Part shown: piece after piece, positions 13,593 to 56,536 of the stretch
How the letters are laid out: the number at the start of each line of letters is the position of its first letter
How positions within the stretch are numbered: the stretch's first letter is position 1
NCBI GenBank assembly: GCA_000999025.1
Contig: LCFM01000003.1
Location: 12,253-76,252, forward strand
Direction: 5' to 3'
DNA: 64,000 bases
Origin: Parcubacteria group bacterium GW2011_GWA2_43_13
Lineage (GTDB): Bacteria > Patescibacteriota > Patescibacteriia > UBA9629 > GWA2-43-13
The notes under the pieces: model-generated
Databases searched by the model: none
Seen by the model: the letters and a program-made list of their open reading frames with translations, nothing else
What the model was told of the DNA's origin: nothing
Translations under genes and position numbers: made by a program

Positions 13593-13982
13593 TCACATTA
13601 TTACACCACGACTCAACGCTTCTCTTAAAGCGTCACGAACCAAAAGTGCACACTTGAGGCGCACTGGGGTAAGGGAAATGCCTAATAAATCTGTTACTGT
13701 TTCCGACGTCATTTGCTCTACTTCTTGGATTTCCTTCTCTTTTGCCCATTCAGTCAATAGAGAAGCGCTGGCAATGCATATCGCGCATCCATGGCCATCA
13801 AACCCAATAGCGACAATATTTGACAATTGACAATTGACAATTGACATTTGGACCCACACTTCAACCTCATCCCCACACAACGGATTAGAAACCTTACCAG
13901 AATAATGCGTAAAATCATCCAACCTCCCTCGGTTTCGCGGGTTTTTGTAATGATCTAAAATCTGCTCACGGTACATTGACAT
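13593..13982 (-). CDS. sufU: Fe-S cluster scaffold SufU/IscU-like, carrying an in-frame repeat insertion
   Basis: HYKNPRNRG ... CGDEV ... GCAICIASAS conserved scaffold motifs. The loop between them is expanded by MSIVNCQLSNIV, which is encoded by the family C repeat. Confidence 0.75.
   Translation of the reverse strand: MSMYREQILDHYKNPRNRGRLDDFTHYSGKVSNPLCGDEVEVWVQMSIVNCQLSNIVAIGFDGHGCAICIASASLLTEWAKEKEIQEVEQMTSETVTDLLGISLTPVRLKCALLVRDALREALSRGVIM
13816..13852. repeat. Family C tandem repeat (TTGACAA x4) inside sufU
   Basis: atatttgacaattgacaattgacaattgacatttgga, in frame. Confidence 0.8.
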
Positions 13983-14034
13983 AAAATCATATTTATGGTA
14001 AGAGGTACCTTACCTCAACATAGAAAGGCGCAAC

Positions 14035-14442
14035 ATGTTGTCACGAAAGATCCGGCGCACGCCTCATAGCCCAGTGCCACAAATAACAGTGAGTTACAAT
14101 ATAGTACCACAGGCGAACCTCCGCTCTGCGGACCTCCGCGAGGCGGACCTCCGCTCTGCGAACCTCCGCGAGGCGGACCTCCGCTCTGCGAACCTCAGCT
14201 GGGCGTTCCTCAACTGGGCGGACCTCCGCTCTGCGGACCTCCGCAAGGCGAACCTCCGCTCTGCGGACCTCCGCGAGGCGGACCTCCGCAAGGCGAACCT
14301 CCGCGGGGCGTTCCTCAACTGGGCGGACCTCCGCTCTGCGGACCTCCGCGAGGCGTTCCTCAGCGGAGCGAAATACAATGCACAAACCATGTTCCCCGAA
14401 GGATTTGATCCGAAAACCGCAGGAATGATCAAACAGGAATGA
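14035..14442 (+). CDS. pentapeptide-repeat protein
   Basis: ANLRSADLREADLRSANL repeats (A[DN]LxxA[DN]L). The underlying DNA is a 30-nt-period tandem repeat, so the antisense frames are also open. Confidence 0.55.
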   Translation: MLSRKIRRTPHSPVPQITVSYNIVPQANLRSADLREADLRSANLREADLRSANLSWAFLNWADLRSADLRKANLRSADLREADLRKANLRGAFLNWADLRSADLREAFLSGAKYNAQTMFPEGFDPKTAGMIKQE

Positions 14443-14508
14443 TCAAATCCGAGAACTAACTCCCCCCTGCCGACGCGAAGCTGTATCTACAGTTCCGCGT
14501 TTTTTTTA

Positions 14509-15780
14509 TTACAACCGCTTCTGTACACTTTTTATACCAACCACCAACCTCTCAACATCCTCTTCGGTATTATATACCCATACGCTTGCCCGACACGATG
14601 CGACAAGTCCTAAGTATTCATGCAAAGGCATAGCGCAGTGATGACCAGCGCGGATGGCAATATTTTGTTCATCCAATAATTGGGCTACATCATGAGCGTG
14701 GATGTTAGGGAAGTTAAACGAAATCAAACCAGAGCGTTTTTCAATCTCGCGAGGACCAAGAATCCAGTTTTCAGTTTTCATCTGCCAGCTGGCGGATCGG
14801 TTTTCAAATTTGACATTTGATAACTGACAACTGATATTTGAAAGTATTGCCTCCTCGTGCTTCCGTATATCATTCCAGCCCAAACTCTTTAACCAATTCA
14901 CTGCCGCGGCAAGCCCAATCGCGCCTGCGATATGTGGAGTGCCTGCTTCAAATTTATGCGGAACATCATTCCAAACCGAATAATCGCGATGCACTTCGCG
15001 GATCATATCCCCACCAGTTATAAACGGCTCCATCTCTTGCAGGCGTGATGACTTTGCGTATAACACGCCAATGCCGGTTGGGCCACCTAATTTATGCCCG
15101 GAAAACACCAGAAAATCACAATCTAAATCTCCCACATCCACTTTCATGTGAGGAACTGATTGCGAAGCATCAATCAATACTGGCACATGATGTTCATGCG
15201 CTTGTTTGATGATTTCTTTTATTGGATTGACCGTGCCAAGCACATTGGAGACATGGGTAAGCGCGAGGAAATTGATTGACTCAAAATAATGGTCAGGAAT
15301 AATCAATTCTCCATTTGCATCAACTTCCAAGTACCGTAACGTACTACCTTTGACATTTGACAACTGACATTTGACAACCGACTGCCACGGCACAATATTG
15401 CTGTGATGCTCGGCAATGGATAACCCAATAACCGCACCGTCACCCCCTCCTTTTAAAGGAAAGGGGAGGGGGTGGTTTCGCAACCACGCGTACGCGACTA
15501 AATTGATCGCCTCGGTCGCGTTGCGCGTAAAAATAATCTCGGAAGGATGCGCGCCAATAAAGCTGGCAACATCCTCCCGCGCCTGCTCATACGCCGCGGT
15601 GGCGCGATTAGAAAGCGCATAAATCCCCCTATGAACATTCGCGCTGTATTCGGTGTAATACTTGTTCATCGCGTCAATCACGCACTGCGGTTTTAGTGCT
15701 GTCGCCGCGCTATCTAAATACACCAAATCTGGATGATGGTTAAATATCGGAAATTCTTTTTTAATACTTTGATCAAACAT
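14509..15780 (-). CDS. sufS: cysteine desulfurase SufS (PLP-dependent), with three in-frame repeat insertions
   Basis: RAGHHCA active-site motif and the PLP lysine region (SGHKLGGPTG). The start was set at MFDQSIK to avoid overlap with the upstream gene. Confidence 0.85.
   Translation of the reverse strand: MFDQSIKKEFPIFNHHPDLVYLDSAATALKPQCVIDAMNKYYTEYSANVHRGIYALSNRATAAYEQAREDVASFIGAHPSEIIFTRNATEAINLVAYAWLRNHPLPFPLKGGGDGAVIGLSIAEHHSNIVPWQSVVKCQLSNVKGSTLRYLEVDANGELIIPDHYFESINFLALTHVSNVLGTVNPIKEIIKQAHEHHVPVLIDASQSVPHMKVDVGDLDCDFLVFSGHKLGGPTGIGVLYAKSSRLQEMEPFITGGDMIREVHRDYSVWNDVPHKFEAGTPHIAGAIGLAAAVNWLKSLGWNDIRKHEEAILSNISCQLSNVKFENRSASWQMKTENWILGPREIEKRSGLISFNFPNIHAHDVAQLLDEQNIAIRAGHHCAMPLHEYLGLVASCRASVWVYNTEEDVERLVVGIKSVQKRL
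14771..14844. repeat. Family C/E repeat in sufS (GCCAGCTGGCGGAT plus TTGACA-type heptamers)
   Basis: ctgccagctggcggatcggttttcaaatttgacatttgataactgacaactgatatttg is translated as NISCQLSNVKFENRSASWQMKTENW. Confidence 0.75.
15348..15384. repeat. Family C tandem repeat in sufS
   Basis: ctttgacatttgacaactgacatttgacaaccgactg is translated as KCQLSNVKGST. Confidence 0.8.
15441..15474. repeat. Family B-like palindrome in sufS (CACCCCCTCCTTTTAAAGGAAAGGGGAGGGGGTG)
   Basis: Imperfect hairpin translated as PLPFPLKGGGDG. Confidence 0.65.
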
Positions 15781-15802
15781 AAAATTGTCATGACACTTTA
15801 TT

Positions 15803-16192
15803 TTAATGACCATTCTTGCCACATCCGCACTGCCCCCCGCAACAACCATCCTGTGCCCCACTACCTCCGCAACACTCGTCATCCTCAATCATCACCACAA
15901 CCTCATCTCCCTCCACCAAAACCTTATACGTTTTCAATGGATGCGTCGCAGGCAATGCAAGCACTTTGCCGGTTTTGATATCAAACCGCGCGCCATGGCG
16001 AGGGCACTCAATAATATGATCGTCAATAATCACGCCCTGCACCAAAGACGCTCCTTTATGCGTGCACTCATCATCAAGGGCAAACCACCCATCTTGAAGA
16101 TGATACACAGTAATCTTTTTTCCACTAATCTCAAACCTCTTTTTTTTACCAATAGAAATATCACCTATTGGAATATTTAACTGTTTTGACAT
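15803..16192 (-). CDS. Rieske [2Fe-2S] domain protein with a cysteine-rich C-terminal tail
   Basis: CTHKGASL and CPRHGARF Rieske boxes. The tail is ECCGGSGAQDGCCGGQCGCGKNGH. Confidence 0.75.
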   Translation of the reverse strand: MSKQLNIPIGDISIGKKKRFEISGKKITVYHLQDGWFALDDECTHKGASLVQGVIIDDHIIECPRHGARFDIKTGKVLALPATHPLKTYKVLVEGDEVVVMIEDDECCGGSGAQDGCCGGQCGCGKNGH

Positions 16193-16197
16193 AGATA

Positions 16198-16845
16198 CTA
16201 TGATTGAGGTATTAATTTCATCACTTCGAATAAAAATCCTTTGATGATCATTTCTTGCGCTAATGCCTTTTCTATACCACGACTTTGGAGATAAAACAAC
16301 TGCCTATCATCAATCCTACCAGTCGTTGCGGCATGGCTTGCTTTGACATCATTGGCTTCTATTTCCAACTCCGGCTTGCTTTCTGATTTTGCATGTTTTG
16401 ATAGCAACAACACCCGATTTTCTAAAAACGCGTTTGATTGCTGGGCTGGTTTATCAATTTTGATCATGCCGTTGAACACTTGTTTACTCGCATCTTTCCC
16501 CACGCCTTTGAATAATGTTTTTGATTGCGAGCGCGGACCAAGATGATGAACAGTAAGATTGAATTGATAATGACTATCGTGTTCAGCAAGAACTGCGCCA
16601 CAGATTTCTGCCCGTGCGTCTGCGTGGAGTTCAACGCGCAGAGTACGGCGCGTCATCGTACCCTCTCCTAATGTAGGAGAGGGTACGATGACACTCGTCG
16701 GTACAAAAAAATACCGCACAACTCCAAACGGCTCTACCGTAATCACCGCCTCTCCCGAAACTCCCCCATCATCAACCACCACCAACTCATCGTTGGGATT
16801 AACACAAATATTATTCATCATATCAGACCAATGCAATAACTTCAT
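16198..16845 (-). CDS. sufD: SufD-like Fe-S assembly protein (short)
   Basis: C-terminal SufB/D core ([27 protein letters not shown]). The ORF contains family B element 16651-16692, which also offers an internal SD+ATG (start MTRRTLRVEL at 16656). Confidence 0.65.
   Translation of the reverse strand: MKLLHWSDMMNNICVNPNDELVVVDDGGVSGEAVITVEPFGVVRYFFVPTSVIVPSPTLGEGTMTRRTLRVELHADARAEICGAVLAEHDSHYQFNLTVHHLGPRSQSKTLFKGVGKDASKQVFNGMIKIDKPAQQSNAFLENRVLLLSKHAKSESKPELEIEANDVKASHAATTGRIDDRQLFYLQSRGIEKALAQEMIIKGFLFEVMKLIPQS
16651..16692. repeat. Family B element (CGTCATCGTACCCTCTCCTA-ATG-TAGGAGAGGGTACGATGAC)
   Basis: 19-bp near-perfect inverted repeat. Both orientations read AGGAGAGGG-N4-ATG. Confidence 0.8.
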
Positions 16846-16881
16846 AGTCGTTCATTCAAACACCTCCCCCTACGGTTGGCA

Positions 16882-18276
16882 TCAGCCAACCGATCCCTCC
16901 ATCTCCAACTCAATCAACCGATTCATCTCCACCGCGTACTCCAAAGGCAATTCTTTTACAATCGGCTCTATAAACCCATTCACCATCATTAAACTTGCTT
17001 CTTGCGGCGACAAACCACGGGATTGTAAATAAAACAACTGCTCTGTCCCTATTTTAGAAACCGTTGCTTCATGGCCAATAGAAACATCATCATTGTCAAT
17101 TTCCATCACCGGATAGGTGTCCGAACGCGACGCCTCATCCAAAATCAATGCATCGCACTGTACATTGGATTTTACGCCATACGCCTCCGGATGAATTTTT
17201 AATAACCCGCGATACGAAGTTCTGCCGCCATGATGACTGATGGATTTAGAAACAATATGCGAGGTAGTAAGCGGAGCCACATGCACCACTTTACCGCCCG
17301 CGTCTTGATGCTGACCTTCGCCTGCCATTGCCAAAGATAAAATATCAGCGCGCGCGCCTTTGCCCATTAAATACACAGATGGATATTTCATGGTAACTCG
17401 GCTCCCAAAATTACCATCCACCCATTCCATAGTCGCATCCTCATACGCGACTGCGCGTTTCGTCACGAGGTTGTACACATTTTTTGACCAATTCTGCACC
17501 GTGGTATACCGCACACGCGCGCCACGCAATACAATAATCTCCACCACCGCGCTGTGCAAAGATGCTGATTGATAGATAGGCGCGGTACAACCTTCCACAT
17601 AATGCACAAAACTGCCTTCATCCGCGATAATCAAGGTCCGTTCAAACTGCCCCATATTCTGCGCGTTGATGCGAAAATACGCTTGCAATGGCGTGTTGAC
17701 TTGCACTCCTGGAGGAACATACACAAAACTTCCGCCGCTCCACACCGCGCTATTTAAAGCGGCAAACTTGTTATCCCCAGAAGGAATCACGGTGCCAAAA
17801 TATTGTTTTACCAAATCAGGATGCTCTCGCATCGCGGTTTCAACATCAGAAAACACCACCCCTAAATCAACAAGCTCTTTACGCATATTATGATACACCA
17901 CTTCACTATCATACTGCGCGCCGACTCCCGCTAAAAAATCCTGCTCCATTTGCGGGATGCCTAAACGATCAAATGTTTTTTTAATATCTTTAGGCAAATC
18001 AGACCATTCTTGCGTACTTCGCTCTGTTGGTTTGAGATAATAATACATCTCATCAAAATTGATGCCTGACAAATCCGCGCCCCAATGTGGCATCTTTTTT
18101 TTACAAAACACATCATACGCATGCAGGCGATACTCCAGCATCCATTGCGGTTCATTTTTATAACGCGAAATCATTTCCACAATCGCACGAGACAACCCCT
18201 TGGGGGTTTTAAAAATATGAGCTTCAGTATCCTTAAATCCGTATTGATAATCCGGTTGTATTTGAATAAATGACAT
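16882..18276 (-). CDS. sufB: Fe-S cluster assembly protein SufB
   Basis: 464 aa with a conserved SufB C-terminus ([20 protein letters not shown]). Confidence 0.9.
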
Positions 18277-18290
18277 AATGGATATAAAAT

Positions 18291-18343
18291 ATCAATTTTC
18301 AAATGTCAAATTTGAAAACTGAAAACTGAAATTTGACATTTGG
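18291..18343. repeat. Family C tandem repeat (CTGAAAA/TTGACA heptamers), intergenic between sufC and sufB
   Basis: atcaattttcaaatgtcaaatttgaaaactgaaaactgaaatttgacatttgg. Confidence 0.8.
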
Positions 18344-19075
18344 TTACTGACTTTCTCTATACCCCATTGCTTCAACTTGTTCTGCCAACTCCTTTCCTCC
18401 ACTCTCCATAATCCTCCCCTGTTTCATAATATGCACATGCGTTGGAGTAAGATATTTCAAGATACGATTATAATGAGTAATAATCAACACGGACTTTTCA
18501 GGCGACATCCACTCATTGATGGATTGCGCAACCGCTTGCAGTGCATCAATATCCAAACCGGAATCAATCTCATCTATCACCGCAAACTTAGGATCAAGCA
18601 TTTTTAATTGCAAAATCTCTGCTTTCTTTTTTTCACCGCCTGAAAATCCTTCATTCACATTTCGATCGCTAAACTCTTCGGCAATCCCTAACGGTTGCAT
18701 CGCAGATGTAATCTCTTTTTGAAATTCAGCAACCGAACCGACTTCGGCGTGCGTGCGCTGATACGCAGTGCGCAAAAAACTGGAAAGCGATACCCCCGGA
18801 ATCTCGACAGGATACTGAAAAGCTAAAAAGACGCCCTTGCGAGCTCGCTCTTCTGGTGAAAAAGTCACAATACTTTTGCCTTCAAAAAGAATCTCCCCAT
18901 GAGTAACCTCAAACCCGGGGTTACCTGCAATCACCTGCGCAAGCGTTGATTTTCCGCTCCCATTCGGCCCCATAATCGCATGAATCTCGCCTGCGCGTAT
19001 CTCCAAAGATAGATTATGAATAATCACTTTTTGTTCCACACAAACATCCAAACCACGAACAAATACCATTGACAT
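18344..19075 (-). CDS. sufC: Fe-S cluster assembly ATPase SufC
   Basis: Walker A GPNGSGKST, ABC signature LSGGEKK, Walker B ILDEIDSGLD. Confidence 0.9.
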   Translation of the reverse strand: MSMVFVRGLDVCVEQKVIIHNLSLEIRAGEIHAIMGPNGSGKSTLAQVIAGNPGFEVTHGEILFEGKSIVTFSPEERARKGVFLAFQYPVEIPGVSLSSFLRTAYQRTHAEVGSVAEFQKEITSAMQPLGIAEEFSDRNVNEGFSGGEKKKAEILQLKMLDPKFAVIDEIDSGLDIDALQAVAQSINEWMSPEKSVLIITHYNRILKYLTPTHVHIMKQGRIMESGGKELAEQVEAMGYRESQ

Positions 19076-19213
19076 ACTGCGTATTGTACTAAATAATAAC
19101 CATACTATGTTACTCTCTCGGGCAGGGAGAGTGCTTTCTCACACAAAGGACCACAACGGGCCTATGCGAGAAAGCGTTTTTTTATTTATGATGTATTCAT
19201 CCTCATTCATCTG

Positions 19214-20775: not shown

Positions 20776-20831
20776 ATCGGAGTACTTTAGTGTGAATTAT
20801 AATGAGTATACGTCCCTCGCCGTGCGTTGTC

Positions 20832-26039: not shown

Positions 26040-26840
26040 TTACGAAAAATTTTGAGGTAATTTTGGCGCTTTGCCATGCCATTGATACTGGCCTTCCATA
26101 AAATCAACGCCTTTCCCCGGAATCGTATGCGCGATAATCGCACACGATGTTTCTAACATCGCCTGCGCAGTATGACATGCGTCAATGATATGATTAAAAT
26201 TATGGCCATCAATTTCAATCACATGAAATCCAAAACTTTCTAATTTCTCTCGCAACGGCTCAAGTGGCATTACATCTTCTGTAACGCCGTCAATTTGAAT
26301 ATTATTTCTATCAATAATAACCGTCAAATTTGAAAGCCGATATTTTGCAATAAATAAAAACGCCTCCCATGATTGACCTTCGTCAAGTTCGCCATCACTC
26401 ATTAATACATACACCCTGTATGTCGCATGTCTCATTTTTCCGGCATACGCCACCCCTGCGGCAATGGAAATCCCTTGCCCCAACGGGCCTGCTGTATTTT
26501 CAATTCCCGGGGCTGACCGATAATGCGGATGGCCTTGAAGCCGTGAATCAATATCCCGCAGTGTTTTCAGTTCCTCGCGTTTAAAATATCCCGCATGCGC
26601 AAGCGTCACATACCATATAGGGCAAATATGGCCATTTGAAAGAATCACCCTATCGCGCTCGCGCCACCACGGTTTTTGCGGATTTTTTTTCAGAATATCA
26701 AAATAGAGCGCAGTAAAAATATCAGCCATGCCTAAACTGCCAGCGGCATGTCCGCTTCCAGCGGATGTTAATGTTATGATGCTGTCCGCCCGAATTTCTT
26801 GTGCCTTTTTTTCAAGAGTGTGTATTTTTTTTTGAATCAC
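26040..26840 (-). CDS. tktA: transketolase, N-terminal (TPP-binding) subunit
   Basis: GSGHAAGSLGMADI and a GDG-type TPP motif (MSDGELDEGQSWEA). Confidence 0.85.
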   Translation of the reverse strand: MIQKKIHTLEKKAQEIRADSIITLTSAGSGHAAGSLGMADIFTALYFDILKKNPQKPWWRERDRVILSNGHICPIWYVTLAHAGYFKREELKTLRDIDSRLQGHPHYRSAPGIENTAGPLGQGISIAAGVAYAGKMRHATYRVYVLMSDGELDEGQSWEAFLFIAKYRLSNLTVIIDRNNIQIDGVTEDVMPLEPLREKLESFGFHVIEIDGHNFNHIIDACHTAQAMLETSCAIIAHTIPGKGVDFMEGQYQWHGKAPKLPQNFS

Positions 26841-30735: not shown

Positions 30736-30778
30736 AGGGTGAATAGTAATGTGATATCTGATAACTGACATTTAGAAT

Positions 30779-34200: not shown

Positions 34201-34267
34201 AATATCAAATGTCAGTTATCAGTTTTCAAATTTGACAACTGAAAATTGACAACTGAAAACTGCCAGT
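34201..34267. repeat. Family C tandem repeat between the hydrogenase subunit genes
   Basis: aatatcaaatgtcagttatcagttttcaaatttgacaactgaaaattgacaactgaaaactgccag. Confidence 0.8.
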
Positions 34268-44389: not shown

Positions 44390-44416
44390 AGAATATCATG
44401 TATCAACAAAACCAAT

Positions 44417-44444
44417 GTAGAGACGGGGTGAACCCCGTCTCTAC
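44417..44444. repeat. Family A single hairpin (GTAGAGACGGGGTGAACCCCGTCTCTAC)
   Basis: Read directly. Confidence 0.8.
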
Positions 44445-44455
44445 ACAGTATACCT

Positions 44456-46936: not shown

Positions 46937-49900
46937 CTATGATGATCGTCGTGATAATACCTTATCAACTTCAGCAAGCACCTTCTGTGGATCAATATCG
47001 GATGCTCCTATTCGCCTACCATTTTCTTCAACAAAATGAGAACTTTTATATTCATCAGCCCATGCCTTATTGTAGGTACTCCCCCCTTGTTTGTAAATTC
47101 CCCGCGCTACAGGATGCAAAACTCTTCTCGTCGCAGGACCAGACCATGTGATGGGGTTTCCAAGAATCATCATAATATTTGGTGTGCCATACATTGAAGA
47201 AATATGGCCAATACCAGTATCCGGGGTAATAGTCATATCAGCAATATGAACAAGTACGCCGATACTCCCAAGGTCTTCTTTCGCCCGAGTAATATGATAA
47301 CCCTTATCACGAATCAGGCGATCCACCAGTCCTTCACTATACATACTCACCCGTTCTGGCCGAGTATCGTCGAGAAATACAATATGTGCATCAGGATACT
47401 TAGTGCAAATCCCGTCAAAAACCTTTTCCCATTGATCAGGATGATATTCCTTAGGCATAACAGACGAACCTGCAGAAACCACAATCACACGCTCTCCTGA
47501 TTGGATATTATACTTATCTCTTAACGCTTGTTCTCGTTGCGGGAAGTCATGACCTGGTTCCCAATAACGCTCTATTTTATTGATATTGTCAAATAACTTT
47601 TGTCCAAACATCACTTCAAAATTTCTCAAAATACGAGCAGGAAGCATATCATATCGAGTAATTCCTTTAGACACTGCTTTCTCATATACCGTATCTCTCC
47701 TCCTGCGAGGAGCTTCTTCAAGCCGCCAACTCGCATAGTCAATAGACATAACCCGAGAAGAATCAGTAATATCATTTTCACTCAACCCTAATATGTCATA
47801 GCTCTCAAAATTCTTATCAGCGTTTATGAGAAATCGCTCTTTACGCCCCTCCCACACAAAAAATTGTTTCATGCCACCAACTCCATATACTGAAACACCA
47901 GGAAACTGATTTTCCAATGGCTTCATTAAAGAAACCTGATTATTAGCAACAAAGACACGAATTGGCTTTCCTGAAATATTATTCCGTTTCATATATTCAT
48001 GCAACGCCATAATCATAGGCGTTGTAAGTACTGCGTCGCCAATAGGATGATCTAATATAACAACAATTTCTTCAGCGCGCTCAATGCCAGCAATAAGAGG
48101 GCTACGATCATAATATTCCTGTTCAAATGGACGCAATCCGATCCGTGTTTCTTCTAAATAAATATTTTCTATTTGATAATGGATTCGCCGTAACTCTTGT
48201 TGCACGAATGCATCCAAAGAATTATTTTTACCATATTGCTTGTTATATTTCTCAAGTTCTTTTTCATATTTCTGCCGCTGTACTGCCGAAATCGTTGAAA
48301 TCTGTTGCAACTCATGATATCTCTTTATTAAATAATCATATCTCCCCTTCAAACGAGAATCTGCAGCAAACCGCTCAAAGAACTTCTCACTTTCTGTGAG
48401 TGAATGACGGTACACTGCCATATCTGTATAATGTTTTTTCACTTCTCCACGATAATAATCAGGGGTCCGTTCAGGTCCATCTGGAGTTGGTTGCCGAGGT
48501 GGCATAGATGGCCCTCCACGCAACGGTGCGGCTTTGAGTTGGTTGCGTTTCCAGAATGGGAGCGCCCATGGCGACTCAACTGGCCCGCCCGGTGCAGGGG
48601 GCATGATGAGCGGGTTATGTATTGTCGCTTCTATCAACTGCTTTGTCATGTCATTGCCGATTGTAGTAGCTAATGCATGCCCATCTAACCGAATCTCCAT
48701 AAATTTCACCGGATGATGAAGATAATGCAAACTCTGCTCTGTGGTAAACAGTTTTGCGATTTCAGGCGGAAGTGTCAAACGGCCGTCAGGACTTGCGCCG
48801 TCAACTAAAATACTTAACCCCTTTTTATTTAATTCATCTGTCGGAAAAATCGCAAGTTGTAAGTGTTTTAATAATGACCCTTCACTATTCCACTGCCGCA
48901 ACTGATCCCGCAAATGTTCTAATTTGGAATCAAAACTTCCGTCCGGATTTCTGCCAAATTTGTCAAACGCATTTTCCGCGTTTTTCATCAAATTATTGGC
49001 AATGCCTCGAATGTCAAAATAGACCTTTCCATCTGCGGATTTATGCACATACCCCATTTGCTGTTTGCCTTCAAATTCAATCAAGCGATTAAAGAAATTA
49101 CTAAACCGCTTGCCGGGCTCATCATGCCAATCAGCGCGCGCATGTTTATCCAGCATGTCTTTCACATAGTCCATCGGATCAACCACCTTGCTTTCTTTTG
49201 TAATAACATCTTCCATGTTAAATCCATGCTCTTTGAGTTGCGAGATAGTATCTTCGGTCAAACTTCCATCCGGGTTGAAATGCAAATTTTCAAAAATCAC
49301 TTTGCCTTTTTCATTTACCAAATCAAATCCATCTCCTTTGCTATCGGGAATAATATTCATCCCGTCCGGTATTTTTACATTCACATCCTCTGCCCCGGGC
49401 AAATCAACATGCACATCATGAAACCCGGGACGGGGCGCTAACTCTTTAGCATGCTCTGCCACCTCGCCTGCGGCGCCTCCGGCGCCTTGCGCAACCTCAT
49501 GCGCCACGCCAGCGCCTCTTTCACCACTGCCGGTCATGTGATGCCACAACGCCTCAATATAACTGTCAGTTTTCGGCGCATGGCCAACTGCCTCTAATCC
49601 CTTAAACCATGCAAACTGCCCAACCGTTCCGGCTAACCCGCCTACTGCCACGCCAGCCAGCCCTGCGATAACTGCCTGGCCTCTTTTATACCTATCAAAT
49701 GCTTTATCATTCTCTTGGATATTTGAAACCAATGCATTCTTGCGATTATTAAAACGATTCAGAATTTCTACTGGGAGGTTATCATCATCTTCGAATCCAA
49801 ATTTTTTACGTACATCGCGCAATCGAATTTTTACATCAGTCATTGCAATTTCTTTTGTTTTATGCGGAAGGCCATACTGCACACCAATTAAATCAACTGA

Positions 49901-52453
49901 TTTTTTTTGCTCAACCTGAATCCGCGCCATAATATCTGCGACATAATCACGATCAGCATCAGCTAAACTACTTTGCGCATAAATCGCATCAAGTCGAGGA
50001 ATAACTGTTTCCGCTTTAATATGATCGTAATGAAACCGCTCAAGCGCTTTACGCTGGCGATCATTGGCCACTGTTTCCGCTCCAAGCGTTGATTGCCTTA
50101 TCGCAAGCCCGCGATCATATTTCAAATCCCTCATCCTGCGCATTGCCACAAACGCTCCACCGACTGCCATACTTGCAAGCAAAGGTGCCCAGGCAGGAGC
50201 CGTACTTGCAACGGTTGCAATAAATCCAGCAGTCGCAACTGCTTTTGCGCCGCGTCGAAACAAAGCATTGCCGACAAATCCACCTAATACGCCATATGCA
50301 ACTGGATTCGCAAGCACTTTACCGGCATGCTTCCCTAATACAGGAATATTTTCAACAAAATCAACATATTTTTCAAACCGAGTCAGAACCTCTTTAGGCT
50401 TATTATCATACAAATCACGCTGTTTTAATCCGAGCTGAATATCTAATGCCATTTCACGACGCAGATGAGTGAGAACCTTTTCCTCTTCTCCAGGATATTG
50501 TTCTGTAAGCTCTTGAATCCGTGCGCGGTATTCTTGCGCCAATTCCCAAAAATTATTTGCAAACAACAGCCCCCTTGCCTCGCGCTCGCGCGTTGCATCA
50601 TCTGAATAATTCTTTCCATGCAACAATGGTAATAATTGATGTTCAAGTTCCTCATCAAACGCTTGTCGCGTCATGGGATGCATGGCATGACGATAAAATA
50701 AATCAGCCGACACACTATTAATAGTTGCATTATCAGAAACGACCGCGCCTTTTTCATTTTGTTGGTTGATTTCTTCTGCAAATTGACGAATGACTGCGTC
50801 CAACACCTGATACGAAATATCTTGGCTTCCCGCATCAATCTGAATATTACTGTCGCCGCGAACTTTTGCTTCGATTTGTGTAAGTAAATTCTTATTACTT
50901 TGAATTGCGCTTAACGCCTCTTGATAGAATTTAATCAAATACCCTTTCTCGCTTGACCGTACCCACCAGCGTTTCACCATATTAGAATTATCAAGTAAGA
51001 CACGAAGTTTTTCTTCTGCCTCGCGCCATGCGTAGGCCTTTGCGATTTCTGACACATCAATAAGATACGCTTTCTTTTTGCCCAACGGCTGTGGTTGACG
51101 ACGTTCCGGAGTTGGCGTTGGAGTTTGCTCGGTTGGAGGTGTTGGAGTAGGTGCTGGGGTCGGGGACTGAGTTGGTACTGGCGCGGGCGATGTCGCAACT
51201 CTCGGCCGCGGAGTTGCGAGTAAATATTTCCAATGTTTGTGAGGTGTAATGGCTAAAAGGTTGAATGTTTTAGGATCCAACTGCACATGCCCAGCGGCGT
51301 CAACTGTCCCCAGCTGTTTTAGCGTATCAAGCATGACTTGTATATTATGCACATGACTTTGCCATACGCTGTCAACTAATGTTTGTATTTCCGGGGATGA
51401 CCGGGCCATGGTGCGCAAACTTGGATGCCCACCAGAAGCTTGAGCCAAGTAATCATAGATACCGTTTTCCTGCGTCAAAAGCGTTAAGAGCTGATCAAGC
51501 GATATATGGTTTGAATAGGTGTATGCTAACACTTCTTCTTTCCCCCACTTGGCAATATGTTCAAATACAATACGACCAACATGCGAGGAAATAACATCAC
51601 GTATTGTCTTATCAGGAAGTGCCTGCCACCAATCTACAATATTCCAATCCTCCGGTACCTGTGCATTCGGATCACCTATTTTTTTACGAATATTTTCAAC
51701 TTCATTTTGAATACCCCAGTGATCAATATGCTCAGGGAACATTGCTGAATTTGCCCGATGCCGCCATTCATGGCTTTGAATAGTAGCACCAGAAAGAGCA
51801 CCTGTTGTTGATCCATCTACAACAATGATACATCCTCGTAAATCAGGAGCATTCTTTGTAATGCGTGGATCACTATAGGAAAGAAATGCAGCGAGCCCGC
51901 CACTCCCAATAATAGTAATGTAATCGCGCTTATCATAAAAGGTAATATTGATGGTCGAAGGCGTAGGGCTTGTAATGTCAACATCGCCATATAATGACGT
52001 TTCAAAAATATCTGATGCCCATTGTTTGGGATCAGACATCATTTTTTGTGTCCGAAGTACAGCTGCGCATTGATCCACCACTAACCGCACTCGTTGTTCA
52101 ACAAGTTTTCGTTGATAAGTGGTTAATTTATCCATCTGTTCAGGAACCAATACCTCTCTCTCAACTTCTTGATACGTAATAGTCCCTGTCGGTCCGCCAC
52201 TGGGATTATTTTGACGAAACCCTTCAATCACCTCTATGGCATGATCAACAATCCCTGCCATAACCTTATATTCCACAACTAACTCATCGCGCGTATTTTT
52301 ATCAACACGATCTCTACGCGACGGCTCTCCCGGCGCAACAGCCACTAATAGTTGATTGCGGTACTCAGCCAAATCATAATTTGGCGTGGTATCTTGTGAG
52401 TGCGATGAGTCATCCGCTCTACTGATACCAATATACTCTCTTGTTTCTCCCAT
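46937..52453 (-). CDS. giant multidomain protein (1838 aa): membrane-anchored, Pro/Thr-rich linker, HExxH-containing N-region, and a C-terminal GT9 (heptosyltransferase-like) glycosyltransferase domain
   Basis: C-terminus VVILDHPIGDAVLTTP ... IADMTITPDTGIGHISSMYGTPNIMMILGNP matches ADP-heptose:LPS heptosyltransferase (GT9) motifs. Also an HEWRH motif, a PTPAPTPTPP linker and two hydrophobic segments. Confidence 0.7.
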   Translation of the reverse strand: MGETREYIGISRADDSSHSQDTTPNYDLAEYRNQLLVAVAPGEPSRRDRVDKNTRDELVVEYKVMAGIVDHAIEVIEGFRQNNPSGGPTGTITYQEVEREVLVPEQMDKLTTYQRKLVEQRVRLVVDQCAAVLRTQKMMSDPKQWASDIFETSLYGDVDITSPTPSTINITFYDKRDYITIIGSGGLAAFLSYSDPRITKNAPDLRGCIIVVDGSTTGALSGATIQSHEWRHRANSAMFPEHIDHWGIQNEVENIRKKIGDPNAQVPEDWNIVDWWQALPDKTIRDVISSHVGRIVFEHIAKWGKEEVLAYTYSNHISLDQLLTLLTQENGIYDYLAQASGGHPSLRTMARSSPEIQTLVDSVWQSHVHNIQVMLDTLKQLGTVDAAGHVQLDPKTFNLLAITPHKHWKYLLATPRPRVATSPAPVPTQSPTPAPTPTPPTEQTPTPTPERRQPQPLGKKKAYLIDVSEIAKAYAWREAEEKLRVLLDNSNMVKRWWVRSSEKGYLIKFYQEALSAIQSNKNLLTQIEAKVRGDSNIQIDAGSQDISYQVLDAVIRQFAEEINQQNEKGAVVSDNATINSVSADLFYRHAMHPMTRQAFDEELEHQLLPLLHGKNYSDDATREREARGLLFANNFWELAQEYRARIQELTEQYPGEEEKVLTHLRREMALDIQLGLKQRDLYDNKPKEVLTRFEKYVDFVENIPVLGKHAGKVLANPVAYGVLGGFVGNALFRRGAKAVATAGFIATVASTAPAWAPLLASMAVGGAFVAMRRMRDLKYDRGLAIRQSTLGAETVANDRQRKALERFHYDHIKAETVIPRLDAIYAQSSLADADRDYVADIMARIQVEQKKSVDLIGVQYGLPHKTKEIAMTDVKIRLRDVRKKFGFEDDDNLPVEILNRFNNRKNALVSNIQENDKAFDRYKRGQAVIAGLAGVAVGGLAGTVGQFAWFKGLEAVGHAPKTDSYIEALWHHMTGSGERGAGVAHEVAQGAGGAAGEVAEHAKELAPRPGFHDVHVDLPGAEDVNVKIPDGMNIIPDSKGDGFDLVNEKGKVIFENLHFNPDGSLTEDTISQLKEHGFNMEDVITKESKVVDPMDYVKDMLDKHARADWHDEPGKRFSNFFNRLIEFEGKQQMGYVHKSADGKVYFDIRGIANNLMKNAENAFDKFGRNPDGSFDSKLEHLRDQLRQWNSEGSLLKHLQLAIFPTDELNKKGLSILVDGASPDGRLTLPPEIAKLFTTEQSLHYLHHPVKFMEIRLDGHALATTIGNDMTKQLIEATIHNPLIMPPAPGGPVESPWALPFWKRNQLKAAPLRGGPSMPPRQPTPDGPERTPDYYRGEVKKHYTDMAVYRHSLTESEKFFERFAADSRLKGRYDYLIKRYHELQQISTISAVQRQKYEKELEKYNKQYGKNNSLDAFVQQELRRIHYQIENIYLEETRIGLRPFEQEYYDRSPLIAGIERAEEIVVILDHPIGDAVLTTPMIMALHEYMKRNNISGKPIRVFVANNQVSLMKPLENQFPGVSVYGVGGMKQFFVWEGRKERFLINADKNFESYDILGLSENDITDSSRVMSIDYASWRLEEAPRRRRDTVYEKAVSKGITRYDMLPARILRNFEVMFGQKLFDNINKIERYWEPGHDFPQREQALRDKYNIQSGERVIVVSAGSSVMPKEYHPDQWEKVFDGICTKYPDAHIVFLDDTRPERVSMYSEGLVDRLIRDKGYHITRAKEDLGSIGVLVHIADMTITPDTGIGHISSMYGTPNIMMILGNPITWSGPATRRVLHPVARGIYKQGGSTYNKAWADEYKSSHFVEENGRRIGASDIDPQKVLAEVDKVLSRRSS

Positions 52454-52457
52454 AGGG

Positions 52458-52769
52458 CTAACTGTTTAAATAAATATCCCGAAACTCCATCATGGTTTTT
52501 GCCATAATTTCATCAATACTCGGAATTCGTTCATGTAAAAATGACTGTACCTCTTGGCTATTGAAATCATGATTCTCTATGAGCTTTTCAAAATCCTTCG
52601 CATCCTGCGATGAGAATTCCTGAAAAATCGCCGTACCGATATACGCGTTCAAGCGTTGAGTAAGACCTGCCATCATATCTTGACGCAAATTATCTGATAC
52701 TCCGCCCTGTTCTGCCTCATCAATCAATTTTTCTAAAAAATCATGAATAAATTGTTCTCCTTGTTCCAT
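52458..52769 (-). CDS. hypothetical acidic protein (first gene of the giant-protein operon)
   Basis: Ends 4 nt upstream of the giant gene start. The start was set at MEQGEQF to exclude the family A hairpin. Confidence 0.45.
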   Translation of the reverse strand: MEQGEQFIHDFLEKLIDEAEQGGVSDNLRQDMMAGLTQRLNAYIGTAIFQEFSSQDAKDFEKLIENHDFNSQEVQSFLHERIPSIDEIMAKTMMEFRDIYLNS

Positions 52770-52779
52770 AGAAGCGTAT

Positions 52780-52807
52780 GTAGAGACCGGGTGAACCCCA
52801 TCTCTAC
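52780..52807. repeat. Family A-like single hairpin (GTAGAGACCGGGTGAACCCCATCTCTAC, degenerate)
   Basis: Two mismatches relative to the 44417 copy. Confidence 0.7.
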
Positions 52808-52828
52808 AGATTATATCAAAAACAAACA

Positions 52829-53086
52829 CTACGTGCCATTATCTCCATTCCCTCGATCGCTTTTTGCGATTCTCATAGAAAAAAATGCAACAATACCAGT
52901 AATAATCAACGCATAGATAATCTTTGCCATAACTGTTCCGCGGTCTAATGGGAAAATCTCTTCAATAAGCGCCACGATGGCATCGTTCCACGCAAGTCCT
53001 GCTACAACTCCAAGGCCTGCCACAATATAACCCAGTGTTTGCCTATGTAGTTCCTTGGTTAATTTGTCTTGTTTGTTTTTTTTCAT
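52829..53086 (-). CDS. small two-TM membrane protein
   Basis: 85 aa with two hydrophobic helices. Confidence 0.45.
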   Translation of the reverse strand: MKKNKQDKLTKELHRQTLGYIVAGLGVVAGLAWNDAIVALIEEIFPLDRGTVMAKIIYALIITGIVAFFSMRIAKSDRGNGDNGT

Positions 53087-53607
53087 AGTTCAGCTAATAC
53101 CTCAATAACTGTCTTCATAAATACTGGTAAATCATCTGGTTTGCGCGAAGTGATCATATTCCCATCCTGCACTACGGCTTGATCTTCCCAATCGCCTCCT
53201 GCGTTTTTCATATCATCTTTAATTGCAAAAAAAGATGTAACCCGCTTTGCGCGAATCACATCCGCAGATACTAACATCCATCCGCCATGGCAAATCGCGG
53301 CAACCACTTTTCCCGTTTGCGCCATCTGGCGCACAAAATCAACCATTTGTTTGTGGCGACGCATGTAATCAGGAGCAAAGCCACCAGGAATAATCACTGC
53401 ATCAAAATGATGTTCAACAAGTTCATCCATTCCCATCTCCGCAATTGCCTCATATCCGTACTTTCCTTTATACATTTCTCCCTTTTTCACGCCAACAAAA
53501 AATACCTGCGCTCCTTCTTCTTTTAAGCGGTAATACGGATACCATGCTTCCATATCCTGATACAGCGTCTCCATTAAAATCGCAACTGTTTTCCCTTGAA
53601 GTAACAT
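53083..53607 (-). CDS. DJ-1/PfpI-family protein
   Basis: Nucleophile elbow AICHGG and the VIIPGG motif. The start was set at MLLQGK, downstream of the hairpin. Confidence 0.8.
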   Translation of the reverse strand: MLLQGKTVAILMETLYQDMEAWYPYYRLKEEGAQVFFVGVKKGEMYKGKYGYEAIAEMGMDELVEHHFDAVIIPGGFAPDYMRRHKQMVDFVRQMAQTGKVVAAICHGGWMLVSADVIRAKRVTSFFAIKDDMKNAGGDWEDQAVVQDGNMITSRKPDDLPVFMKTVIEVLAEL

Positions 53608-53646
53608 AGATTCTTTCTGTATTGTAACAGAAATCTCCCACCAGTT

Positions 53647-53675
53647 GTAGAGACACCCCCCTGAGGCGTCTCTAT
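53647..53675. repeat. Family A-like single hairpin (GTAGAGACACCCCCCTGAGGCGTCTCTA)
   Basis: Read directly. Confidence 0.7.
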
Positions 53676-54226
53676 AATCCCAAATCATCAGCAATGTCTT
53701 TCATGGCCTCAAGCTCAAGCACAACTAATTCTTCAAGCGTCATACCAAGCAGTTCTTGGCATCTGGCAATAAGATCGCGATCTACTCCGCGAGCAAACCC
53801 CGGTGTTTTAAATTTTTTCAATATTGATTCAGAAATAACTGATGCGAGTTTTTTATCCGGCTGTACCAATGCGCACGCTACAATCAACCCGGTCAATTCT
53901 TCTGCACAATACAATGCCTTTTCAAGCATAGTTTGCGGTTCAATCCCATGCAAATGATTATGCACATAAATCGCTCGGACAACGTCATCATCCACTCCTG
54001 CTGTTTTTAAATATCCTTGCGACATAATGGAATGTTGCAAGGGATCATCTGCTGTTTCTTCCCAATCAATATCATGCAACAGTCCTGCAAGCGCCCATTT
54101 TGCTTGATCTTGTTCAAACCTTTTTGCCAGCGCTTTCATAACTGCTTCTGCCGCAACCATGTGTTTGATTAAACTTTCATTTTTTACATGTTCTCGTAAT
54201 AATGCCATTGATTGTTGTTGTGTCAT
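53672..54226 (-). CDS. HD-domain phosphohydrolase
   Basis: HD motif LLHDIDWEE with additional conserved His and Asp residues. 184 aa. Confidence 0.7.
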   Translation of the reverse strand: MTQQQSMALLREHVKNESLIKHMVAAEAVMKALAKRFEQDQAKWALAGLLHDIDWEETADDPLQHSIMSQGYLKTAGVDDDVVRAIYVHNHLHGIEPQTMLEKALYCAEELTGLIVACALVQPDKKLASVISESILKKFKTPGFARGVDRDLIARCQELLGMTLEELVVLELEAMKDIADDLGL

Positions 54227-54242
54227 AGTATTATTTTCATAC

Positions 54243-54350
54243 CACCCCCTCCTTATACAGGATGGGGAAACTGATACATCACCTCTCCTTTACAAAGAGA
54301 GTGCCCATACGTCTCCCTCTCCGTTGCAAGGAGAGGGTAGGGTGAGGTTT
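54243..54350. repeat. cluster of three Family B hairpins (last copy reverse: CCTCACCCTACCCTCTCCTT-GCAAC-GGAGAGGGAGACGTAT)
   Basis: Intergenic between the HD gene and the MazG-like gene. Also encodes the last residues of the MazG-like ORF. Confidence 0.75.
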
Positions 54351-54678
54351 ACCGACCATCCCCGCTCCCACCTAACACACCACGGTCTTTGCGAGAAAAT
54401 AATTTTTCAATATTTGCTTGCGCGATATCATCTAATGATAATCCAAATTCTGTTGCGCATTGTGAAACATACCACAACACATCACCAAGCTCGCTCTTAA
54501 TATCTTCGCGTTTCTCATCAGATACAACACCACTATCATCCCGCATTATTTTTTTCACTTTTCCGGCAACCTCGCCTGCCTCGCTCGCAAGGCCCAATGT
54601 CGGGTAAATAAAATTCTTTCCCACATTGGGATACAGTGCCGTTGTTTTCGATTTTTGCTGATACTCTTCAAAGTTCAT
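54349..54678 (-). CDS. MazG-like nucleotide pyrophosphohydrolase
   Basis: ASEAGEVAGKVKK ... ELGDVLWYV all-alpha NTP-PPase motifs (EExxE...DxxW). Confidence 0.75.
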   Translation of the reverse strand: MNFEEYQQKSKTTALYPNVGKNFIYPTLGLASEAGEVAGKVKKIMRDDSGVVSDEKREDIKSELGDVLWYVSQCATEFGLSLDDIAQANIEKLFSRKDRGVLGGSGDGR

Positions 54679-54760
54679 AGGATAAAAATAATATCATTAT
54701 CAATATTTTAATGCAAAAAAACAGCTGTCCCGTACGACAGCTGGTGAGAGAAGTCAACGA

Positions 54761-55078
54761 TCAGTACAGTAAGAGAACAACACCTTGTGGGAAACTGATA
54801 ACAAGCACCTTGGGGCATACCGCCTGCAACCACAACGATTGATATATGACAATCGCATCTCGCAACCGAGAAAAGAATCGCTGTTTCACAGATCTGCTAA
54901 GTTGTTCCCACAAAAAACCGACACCCTCCAATGCCATACACGCACACTCAAGGGAATAGCATACCTCCATCTCACCCTGCGCTCGGACAACTCCGCGCAA
55001 TTCATAGATGAATTGTTCGAGCACGCCATCAAAAGCAATGGCGAGATCCGACTGGTCCATGAAAGTCCCCTTCATCAC
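54761..55078 (-). CDS. hypothetical protein
   Basis: 105-aa ORF immediately downstream of the OLD-family gene. Confidence 0.35.
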   Translation of the reverse strand: MMKGTFMDQSDLAIAFDGVLEQFIYELRGVVRAQGEMEVCYSLECACMALEGVGFLWEQLSRSVKQRFFSRLRDAIVIYQSLWLQAVCPKVLVISFPQGVVLLLY

Positions 55079-55137
55079 GTTGTGTTATTTTTATGATACT
55101 CTTCTCCGCCACCACTGTCGAGAAATAAAAAAATACA

Positions 55138-56448
55138 TTATAACACGTCTAAAATGCTCTTAATCACCCGCATTTCTTGTGTATCCAAATCCTGCGCCGT
55201 AATGCCGTGCGCGGCGCGCAAGGCATTGATCGGCTTTTTATCATCTCTCCGCTGATACTTACGCGGATAGCTTTTTTCCAAATCGCCATTAAGAATAAAA
55301 ATATTCGCTCGGCGCAACAGCTGTATCTTTTTATTCCGATTGGCGCGTTCATTCCCATACAGTGTCTGCGCAATCACATCAGACCAATGGCTCCGCAAAG
55401 CATCACCATCCAACATAATCAGGTATGGGATTTTAAACGCCTCAAATACTTTTGCGTAAATATCAATATTATCCTTACTATTGGCATACATAACTTTCAC
55501 ATCCAATTCGCCATGATAAAACCGGTCAATCAATCCGCGCATTAAAATTCTGTCAGACACGCCTTCTACCAATAACACTTGATCCGCAAAAAACATTTCA
55601 GAATTATCAGCATCAAGTTCTTGCTCAAGGCGGTTGGTGTTAATGGCAATACCAGAGTCGGTAAGTTGGTATATTTTTGTATTCCTGTTTTCATCGCGCG
55701 CAACCCGCCATAAATGCGCAATCTGCTGGGGCTGAACAAACACAGGGCTATGCGTGGTTAAAAATATCTGATTATTCAATTTTTTATCCTTTAATACCCG
55801 AACAAATTTTTTGATCAGCGTGGGATGAAGATGCGTTTCCGGCTCATCAATCAGCACAATATCATAATCAGGATGATACACATAAAATAACATCACAAAT
55901 AATCGCTTAAATCCTTCACCCATGCGCCCTAATGGACGATCTTTGCGATCTGAAAACACGGTTGCCAAAAACAGGCGATCGCTGATTTCAATATCATTAA
56001 AATATTCTTTGAGCATCGCGCAAAATTGAGCATATACGGCAGGATGCGTGGATGAAAACTGTTTCAACTCTTGCGCTACTTTTAATGTGTCTGTCTTCTC
56101 TACTCCAATCCGTATCACGCGTTTTTGAATATGTAAGATCGTAGATGTATTTTTTTGCACTTTTCCCCCATCTATCAACCATTGTTGAATATTTTTATGC
56201 TGTTTGATGCTAACATATTCTCCGCTTTTCAAACGCAGAGTAAGTTCCAAATCAGCGCGCGAATCATAAAATCGGTCAGGATCAGGAGATGGATTAAAAA
56301 ACTGCTCAATCGCATCTAATACATTGGTTTTGCCGGAATTATTTGGGCCGATCAAAATCTGAAGATGCGAAAAACGATCAAGCACAATCGGCTCTTCAAC
56401 TGTTTTGTAATGATTGATACGCAACGCTTGTATATGCATAGTAATCAA
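55138..56448 (-). CDS. OLD-family ATP-dependent endonuclease (ABC-type ATPase plus Toprim)
   Basis: Walker A LIGPNNSGKTNVLDAI, Walker B with the OLD signature VLIDEPETHLHP, TTHSP block, and C-terminal Toprim LLVEGVSDRIL. Confidence 0.75.
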   Translation of the reverse strand: MITMHIQALRINHYKTVEEPIVLDRFSHLQILIGPNNSGKTNVLDAIEQFFNPSPDPDRFYDSRADLELTLRLKSGEYVSIKQHKNIQQWLIDGGKVQKNTSTILHIQKRVIRIGVEKTDTLKVAQELKQFSSTHPAVYAQFCAMLKEYFNDIEISDRLFLATVFSDRKDRPLGRMGEGFKRLFVMLFYVYHPDYDIVLIDEPETHLHPTLIKKFVRVLKDKKLNNQIFLTTHSPVFVQPQQIAHLWRVARDENRNTKIYQLTDSGIAINTNRLEQELDADNSEMFFADQVLLVEGVSDRILMRGLIDRFYHGELDVKVMYANSKDNIDIYAKVFEAFKIPYLIMLDGDALRSHWSDVIAQTLYGNERANRNKKIQLLRRANIFILNGDLEKSYPRKYQRRDDKKPINALRAAHGITAQDLDTQEMRVIKSILDVL

Positions 56449-56499
56449 AATATCAGATTTCGATTCTCACATATCAAATTCTCTACGATTAACGCGGTC

Positions 56500-56536
56500 G
56501 TCATTTGAAAACTGACATCTGACATTTGATAATTGG
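56500..56536. repeat. Family C tandem repeat
   Basis: gtcatttgaaaactgacatctgacatttgataattgg. Confidence 0.75.

Follow-up and report, generated by a model that had tools for sequence, protein, structure and literature searches.

TGA-core heptamer arrays in genes and operon spacers of a Jacksonbacteria sub-clade

The stretch of DNA analysed here, hereafter the window, is 64 kb of the genome of Parcubacteria group bacterium GW2011_GWA2_43_13, an ultra-small groundwater bacterium of Candidatus Jacksonbacteria (Patescibacteria, or candidate phyla radiation, CPR). Exact protein matches give this placement and link the window to contig MHJS01000021 of GCA_001818105.1, from the Rifle aquifer. The window holds a suf region with genes for an Rrf2 regulator, a class-V aminotransferase, sufC, sufB, sufD, a Rieske protein, sufS, a pentapeptide-repeat open reading frame (ORF), sufU and NifU-C, and its other genes include enolase, the small and large subunits of a NiFe-hydrogenase (group 3-type, sulfhydrogenase-like), PGK, FBPase and parAB. 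Set in this housekeeping neighbourhood are short tandem arrays of a heptanucleotide with TGA at its core, which are the subject of this report. They occupy seven loci in or beside suf, hydrogenase, peroxiredoxin, ABC-permease and OLD-like genes, and in related species arrays stand at the same sites with units specific to each genome.

Read in register, the unit is WYTGAHA, and the 39 units of the window comprise TTTGACA (8), ACTGACA and TTTGAAA (5 each), ATTGACA, TTTGATA and ACTGAAA (4 each) and others. They run head to tail, three to five at a time, and build elements of 21–60 nt. Counting both strands, 9 runs of at least three tandem NNTGANA units are present, compared with 0.04 in composition-preserving shuffles, and 15 runs of at least two units, compared with 4.0. 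These counts bear out the preliminary description of the window, which had reported a dispersed family of near-heptameric tandem repeats in six intervals, half of them in frame within sufS and sufU and the other three intergenic; the repeats do lie in those intervals, the gene calls (sufU, sufS, sufB, sufC and the hydrogenase subunits) hold, and a seventh locus at 30750–30770 joins them. The ATTTG/CAAAT flanks that had been listed as separate motifs are actually partial units or the junction of inverted arms. Tandem Repeats Finder reports period-7 or period-14 arrays at 13820–13850, 15349–15382, 18287–18342 and 34228–34259. At four loci, half-arrays on the minus and plus strands face each other (14765–14808/14809–14843, 18290–18310/18311–18338, 34203–34230/34231–34258 and 56451–56478/56504–56531), so that these loci form imperfect palindromes. 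Across the palindromic arrays, including those of relatives, hairpin z-scores lie between −3.4 and −6.7, apart from weaker values at sufS site 2 and at 56451–56531 (both given below). Although 89% of the window is coding, three of the seven loci are intergenic (P = 0.03). For comparison, we used relatives found via SufS and hydrogenase homologs, each covered over 6–21 kb: L007/L008 (SufS 83% identical in amino acids), L009/L010 (79%), L213 (hydrogenase 86%) and the array-free L211, L351 and L199.

A period of 7 is not a multiple of the codon, and the repeat is therefore one of DNA and not of protein, even where it is translated. Within sufU (13593–13982, minus strand), a half-array at 13816–13852 on the plus strand, opposite to the gene, consists of TTTGACA, three ATTGACA and partial units; its antisense reading is QMSIVNCQLSNIV, and solved IscU/SufU structures show a 5-residue gap at its position. 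The sufS gene (14509–15780, minus strand) hosts two in-frame arrays. Site 1 is a half-array at 15348–15384 on the plus strand (TTTGACA, TTTGACA, ACTGACA, TTTGACA and a partial unit), translated as VVKCQLSNVKG and aligned to a 5-residue gap in Bacillus subtilis SufS. Site 2 has a reverse arm at 14809–14843 on the plus strand (TTTGACA, TTTGATA, ACTGACA, ACTGATA, TTTGAAA; translated SNISCQLSNVK) and a forward arm on the coding strand at 14765–14808 (minus; TTTGAAA, ACCGA[..]AAA, ACTGAAA, ACTGG). The forward arm is interrupted at 14783–14802 by ATCYGCCAGCTGGCRGAT, an in-frame insert of a different dispersed palindrome, and was delimited by comparison with L007, which is without this nested insert. 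The translation of site 2 is SNISCQLSNVKFENRSASWQMKTENW and its hairpin folds at −20.3 kcal/mol (z −2.6). Common to both sufS arrays, and read in one frame in each, is TGTCAGTTRTCAAATGTCAAA, a core of 21 nt with 1 mismatch. The seventh locus, at 30750–30770 on the plus strand of a minus-strand peroxiredoxin ORF, reads TGTGATA, TCTGATA, ACTGACA and encodes the first residues, MSVIRYH.

SufS sites 1 and 2 measure 25 and 32 residues here, compared with a near-invariant 20 and 20 in an alignment of 65 more distant SufS proteins. Because the sites are longer by 5 and 12 residues than in these homologs, and because the arrays fall on gaps relative to homologs in the Protein Data Bank (PDB), the arrays in SufS and SufU are insertions; they add 5–12 residues, in loops. 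An AlphaFold model of SufS is confident nearly throughout, with a mean predicted local distance difference test (pLDDT) score of 92.3, and its low-scoring segments are mainly residues 101–120 (a GC-rich palindromic insert), 141–150 (site 1, where pLDDT falls to 77) and 321–340 (site 2), with the inserts modelled as low-pLDDT coil. Alignment and model together show in-frame insertion into conserved genes at structurally permissive loop positions.

Orientation follows from the unit. A forward array puts TGA into all three frames within 21 nt, and copies inside ORFs are therefore reverse, as seen in sufU, at sufS site 1 and in the peroxiredoxin gene. Where forward arms do occur inside ORFs (sufS site 2 in the window, L007 and L009; sufD in L009), the in-frame YGA is always CGA, TGG or CGG, and the out-of-frame units retain TGA. 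The replacement of TGA in frame and its retention out of frame mean that the ribosome reads the arrays and that selection only keeps the frame open; in-ORF arrays are translated and survive solely in stop-free form.

The three spacer arrays sit between co-directional operon genes and nearly fill the spacer, in the mRNA-sense order of reverse arm, forward arm, 6–13 nt and ATG. In the 67-nt sufC–sufB spacer, a palindromic double array at 18290–18338 comprises minus units (18290–18310) and plus units (18311–18338); on the mRNA, 13 nt separate its forward arm from the sufB ATG, a distance that shrinks to 6 nt with the degenerate unit TTTTATA included, and its RNA folds at −14.1 kcal/mol (z −3.4). 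Between the hydrogenase small- and large-subunit genes (spacer 83 nt), the double array at 34203–34265 has a reverse arm (34203–34230), a forward arm (34231–34258) and a degenerate ACTGCCA; the ATG follows after 9 nt, or after 2 nt with ACTGCCA counted, and the array folds at −20.9 kcal/mol (z −3.45). The spacer of about 100 nt between genes for a macB-like permease and an OLD-family ATPase holds a split palindromic array at 56451–56531, in which plus units (56504–56531) and minus units (56451–56478) are separated by a 25-nt gap; the minus-strand units end 11 nt before the annotated ATG, and the fold is marginal (z −1.7). The gene directly downstream of this array (55138–56448, minus strand) combines an OLD-family ATPase with a TOPRIM domain (AAA_15/AAA_21 + OLD-like_TOPRIM) and is a candidate defence nuclease. 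Junctions in array-free relatives are tight: the hydrogenase spacer is 12 nt in L211, and sufC and sufB overlap, with no spacer, in the more distant L351. The arrays are therefore additions to originally tight junctions and, in genes and spacers alike, insertions relative to the ancestral state.

Forward arms end 0–13 nt before the ATG of sufB, the hydrogenase large-subunit gene, the OLD-like gene, L007 pepA and the L213 hydrogenase gene, with the caveat that the arrays fill the whole spacer. This is the position reported for BOGUAY (MacGregor 2015, PMC4679880), and it invites the reading of the arrays as cis-regulatory RNA or DNA elements, that is, as binding sites for a sequence-specific factor or as structured elements between cistrons that would adjust translation or mRNA stability of the downstream cistron, as proposed for the TAACTGA repeats of Beggiatoaceae, with the in-ORF copies as by-products. 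We consider this rather unlikely. Hairpin z-scores of −3.4 to −6.5 fit such a role, as does a genome mostly without Shine-Dalgarno sites, a recognisable motif being missing from most window genes. However, the arrays are close to start codons because they fill nearly the whole of a short spacer, which makes closeness unavoidable and without asymmetry, and start-codon proximity was accordingly dropped as an independent sign of function. The missing Shine-Dalgarno motif beside arrays was dropped as well, since its lack is genome-wide and not specific to array-adjacent genes. Half of the copies are inside ORFs, the orthologous junctions work array-free in L211 and L351, and an Rfam scan returned three tRNAs only and no Rfam family on the arrays. 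As a separate observation on starts, 6 of 52 window genes begin with ATGTCA.

Among the relatives, L007/L008 keep arrays at sufS site 2, in sufU and in the sufC–sufB spacer, the sufU unit being TTTGATA (four copies) as against ATTGACA (three) in the window and the spacer array carrying a small GC hairpin nested at its centre. L007 further has an array upstream of pepA that is not in the window, and at sufS site 1 it has unrelated GC-rich palindromic inserts instead of heptamers. In L009/L010 both sufS sites carry arrays, and sufD contains a palindromic pair (in L009 −41.9 kcal/mol, z −6.7). Their units are CCYGAHA in 17 of 17 cases, compared with 0 of 39 units starting with CC in the window, although GC content is the same at 0.43–0.45, and the two sufS arrays of L009 match each other at 44 of 45 nt. 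L213 has the orthologous hydrogenase-spacer palindrome, with two more units and a stronger hairpin (z −6.45). No heptamer arrays were found in the 21 kb examined of each of L211, L351 and L199.

Third-codon identity between species is 0.48–0.63, close to saturation. Despite this, the arrays remain recognisable and homogeneous, with one unit type per genome, which is the signature of concerted evolution; an unrenewed neutral array would have decayed, and the motif is therefore being maintained or renewed. We rejected a reading of array identity above that of synonymous sites as orthologous conservation, as any members of a low-complexity family align well; such identity shows solely that the motif is maintained or renewed. 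Genome-specific units at shared sites point to concerted evolution or, alternatively, to selection by a co-evolving binding factor, two processes that these sequence data do not separate. A unit motif kept although synonymous sites are near saturation, and a coherent genome-wide change of unit of the kind expected from a co-evolving binding factor, would also suit the cis-regulatory role discussed above; against that role, unrelated GC-rich palindromes replace arrays at the same sites in other species.

Positions in SufD, SufS and SufU that are occupied by heptamer arrays in one species contain GC-rich palindromes in another, and small palindromes are nested in arrays or in each other (window 14783–14802, the L007 sufC–sufB spacer and L007 sufD). 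This suggests either that hairpin-forming DNA attracts further inserts or that few loop positions tolerate them. Several dispersed palindromes of the window belong to this picture as observations in their own right. A GC-rich family, CCCTCTCC...GGAGAGGG, occurs at 16652–16692 (sufD, with perfect 19-nt arms), 15440–15480 (sufS), 54282–54336 and 57818–57876, in frame in suf genes and also in spacers, and it shares protein sites with the heptamer arrays of relatives. The palindrome ATCCGCCAGCTGGCGGAT is found at 4186–4213, at 14783–14802 (in frame in the sufS heptamer array) and at ~6425, and a copy in L007 sufD lies inside a GC-rich palindrome.

Such exchange at shared sites raises the possibility that the arrays are non-autonomous mobile mini-elements, comparable to MITEs (miniature inverted-repeat transposable elements), REPINs or small dispersed repeats (SDRs), copied by a trans-encoded enzyme into hairpin-forming targets where they replace other palindromes or nest in them. 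The same codon-level sites of sufD, sufS and sufU hold heptamers or unrelated palindromes depending on the species, nested inserts lie at or near hairpin centres, array presence differs between species, and the near-identity of the two L009 copies fits this reading as well. Among the matches listed, moreover, four-unit WYTGAHA arrays in viral contigs and CCYGAHA arrays in metagenome contigs were common, some of the latter with the same layout of reverse and forward arms, and none of these loci was closely related to the window genome. Nonetheless, we regard this origin as quite unlikely. In the occupied and empty sites that were compared, we saw neither terminal inverted repeats beyond the units nor target-site duplications, copies differ in length and in the order of units between window loci, a Pfam scan of 40 window ORFs gave no match to a transposase, RAYT or reverse transcriptase, and gene conversion between existing arrays accounts equally well for near-identical copies.

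The preliminary description had drawn attention to TTGACA as the sigma-70 −35 hexamer, had suggested that intergenic copies could act as promoter-like or protein-binding arrays and had raised phase variation driven by slippage. TTGACA does occur in 12 of the 39 window units, the 7-nt periodicity itself yields TTGACA-17-GATAWT pairs that score 10/12 at 14810, 15371 and 56505, and unit number differs between species. However, the hexamer is absent from all units of the orthologous arrays of L007, L009/L010 and L213, in most arrays the TGA/TTGACA strand runs antisense to the genes beside it, and the best-scoring promoter-like pairs are antisense too. Their counts do not significantly exceed those in shuffles (15 compared with 10.9 ± 3.2 in the suf region, 3 with 2.1 ± 1.5 and 4 with 1.0 ± 1.2). 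What the units conserve is a YGAHA core and not the −35 hexamer.

For the proposed phase variation, we compared consensus assemblies of the same population from different samples, at 99.5–100% identity. The suf-region sites, four in all, are covered by 6 assemblies each, the peroxiredoxin site by 3, the hydrogenase site by 10 and the macB site by 7. All seven arrays were 100% identical among the assemblies, a comparison of consensus sequences that cannot exclude rare repeat-length variants. By contrast, a neighbouring 15-nt repeat does vary. This tandem array (14112–14349) lies in the pentapeptide-repeat ORF at 14035–14442 (plus strand), antisense between sufS and sufU, and the ORF measures 135, 110 or 100 amino acids among near-identical assemblies; it is the sole length-polymorphic repeat that we saw. 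A change of 7 nt in either direction inside sufS or sufU, which hold three of the copies, would frameshift an essential Fe-S assembly gene, and the remaining copies, outside these two genes, lie in operon spacers; the host genes are housekeeping genes and not surface or contingency genes. Nothing at the heptamer arrays resembles a contingency locus. Taken together, a role as −35 boxes, as phase-variation switches or as both is very improbable, and what stands of the preliminary interpretation is the dispersed repeat family with its three in-frame and three spacer copies, and these arrays may conceivably bind protein. Differences in SufU and SufS protein length within clusters, considered as hidden repeat polymorphism, proved to be differences in start-codon calls and one chimeric sequence; hydrogenase proteins also differ in length within clusters, yet the arrays at their locus are invariant. 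P0125 (a protein of SRR3989344) is a SufS whose N-terminal two thirds resemble the window species and whose C-terminal third resembles that of L007, so that it represents an artefact of assembly (a chimera) or else natural recombination between two co-occurring Jacksonbacteria.

With somewhat more confidence than doubt, we read the arrays as TGA-core heptanucleotide repeats, of the type of the short tandemly repeated repetitive (STRR) and TAACTGA sequences, that occur in one Jacksonbacteria sub-clade and most probably represent selfish or neutral DNA that is tolerated and that slippage and conversion renew. Within an array, replication slippage or unequal exchange would create and renew the units; between arrays, template switching or short-patch gene conversion would do so. 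Together these processes would keep the arrays recognisable and homogenise the unit type within a genome, and hairpin-forming sites may act as hot spots that draw further small palindromic inserts. Intercistronic copies may still affect the mRNA, as they set a hairpin, and stop codons in each of the three frames, shortly before the start codon that follows. Several points weigh against this interpretation. The comparison of consensus assemblies revealed no gene conversion tracts or slippage intermediates, and no enzyme or mobility mechanism was identified. The sampled DNA amounts to 64 kb here and 6–21 kb per relative, and the case for concerted evolution rests mainly on one divergent species (L009/L010, 4 arrays). 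Finally, selection by a trans-acting factor that binds the arrays and co-evolves with them could account equally well for persistence at orthologous sites and for a coherent unit switch, in which case the arrays would have a function.

A stronger form of that last point is that the arrays belong to a coordinated system, in which a lineage-specific trans-acting factor (a protein that binds RNA or DNA, or else a machinery for copying or conversion) recognises the unit and co-evolves with it, so that all arrays switched together, with WYTGAHA in one species and CCYGAHA in its sister, at the same sites. This seems unlikely to us. If true, it would mean a post-transcriptional regulon that marks intercistronic junctions in CPR genomes poor in Shine-Dalgarno sites or, alternatively, a new class of hairpin-targeting mini-elements that overwrite other small elements within essential genes. 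In any case, the most interesting residue of the analysis is that the unit switches between genomes while the sites are conserved.

Further small repeats and features were noted in the same DNA. A second period-7 palindromic array at 13280–13341, between the NifU-C and DoxD-like genes, has the unit WYTGTTT (left arm ACAAAAA), with a fold of −18.4 kcal/mol (z −2.8). L009 has a similar TGTTTTT array upstream of pepA (5596–5625), and the WYTGTTT array may be a TGA-to-TGT variant of the heptamer family. Perfect palindromes with 14-nt arms, GTAGAGACGGGGTT/AACCCCGTCTCTAC, at 5406–5433 and 44416–44445 are intergenic and make up a further small repeat family. At 26061/26062, other assemblies have 111 extra bases (including an N-gap; L001 2105–2215) that end the transketolase-N gene and contain a MITE-like terminal repeat, TTAAGGGACTGTCGCCGAATGC; the window is without them, owing to collapse in the assembly or to an insertion polymorphism. 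The L007 grx–pepA spacer (~12975–13145) has this MITE-like element in full, with both inverted ends. GC skew is negative throughout the window and the majority of genes are on the minus strand. An ORF of 1838 residues (46937–52453, minus strand) has no Pfam match at E ≤ 1e-4.

On the reading as tolerated repeats, too, the arrays are instructive. CPR/Patescibacteria are seen as streamlined, yet this lineage tolerates several families of tiny repeats in core Fe-S assembly enzymes and at operon junctions. The same sites in sister species, bearing different units or replaced by other palindromes, provide a natural test set for the maintenance and function of repeats. In practical terms, arrays inflate protein lengths and spacer sizes and can mislead gene callers, through alternative start calls, as well as promoter scans.

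Among known systems, the in-frame copies recall the Rickettsia palindromic elements (RPEs), selfish palindromic DNA of a small-genome bacterium that has invaded conserved genes in frame, where the proteins tolerate the translated segment at surface-exposed positions. RPEs are ~100–150 bp long with a conserved family sequence, are not tandem heptamers and are not known to be linked to intercistronic spacers or TGA cores. The likeness lies in an in-frame, translated palindromic insert at permissive positions of conserved genes, whereas the elements here are 21–60 nt of heptamers. SDRs and REPINs are, for their part, defined unique sequences of 21–27 nt or doublets of repetitive extragenic palindromes (REPs). 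SDRs are often embedded in tandem heptameric repeats. Those of Nostoc punctiforme were reportedly described by Elhai et al. in 2008 (as cited in PMC3116915). Like the elements here, SDRs and REPINs are very short dispersed repeats that nest in one another or in hairpins and seemingly replace one another. The heptamer arrays, in contrast, are without fixed ends, and REPINs are linked to RAYT transposases (PMC3116915), of which none was seen among the 40 window ORFs scanned.

Closer still are the STRR sequences of Cyanobacteria. In Nostoc PCC 7120, csR1.1, (TTGTCAG)n, has 44 genomic copies, in the hup/hyp region and elsewhere (PMC2408588), and (TTTTGAA)n and (GACYAAT)n near start codons have modest reporter effects (bioRxiv 10.1101/2022.06.06.494920). 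Nostoc punctiforme has a hairpin between hupS and hupL (PMC2661322), matched here by the hairpin between the hydrogenase small- and large-subunit genes. TTGTCAG is the reverse complement of the CTGACAA/ACTGACA unit of the window, and in both groups tandem heptamers lie in intergenic regions of hydrogenase or hyp operons, near starts. The differences are another phylum and another hydrogenase class; moreover, the cited papers describe intergenic arrays only, and in-frame copies in housekeeping enzymes and genome-specific unit switching are absent from their descriptions.

Also among the closest systems are the direct repeats of TAACTGA found in marine Beggiatoaceae, in Thiocystis and in 15 Cyanobacteria and 5 Bacteroidetes, which are mostly forward and just upstream of start codons, with reverse copies in a few ORFs and one indirect repeat, and for which a post-transcriptional role has been proposed, not shown (PMC4679880). 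Both share a TGA-core heptamer (TAACTGA corresponds to ACTGATA here, and AAACTGA and CAACTGA to ACTGAAA and ACTGACA), sets of 2–6 copies over many dispersed loci, intergenic forward sets just upstream of starts, as in BOGUAY, and an occasional inverted repeat; in both, the forward orientation brings stops in three frames, so that ORFs hold reverse copies. Unlike the BOGUAY repeats, whose near-variants rarely repeat, the arrays here are degenerate mixtures of units, are usually paired as imperfect palindromes, and switch unit type between sister species at orthologous sites. They sit in internal loops of SufS, SufU and a relative's SufD, whereas the in-ORF copies there are at protein termini or in hypothetical proteins. 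The Patescibacteria/CPR host is a phylum outside the reported distribution, and the literature that we searched contained no report of heptamer repeats in this group. The find thus extends a patchy distribution of TGA-core heptamers that had been read as horizontal exchange among Cyanobacteria, Beggiatoaceae and Bacteroidetes. Since exact ACTGATA accounts for merely 2 of 39 units and single-base variants are mixed, the arrays fall into the broader class of TGA-core heptamers and not into a strict TAACTGA family: a known class of repeat, here in a phylum outside its reported distribution and with some unusual habits.

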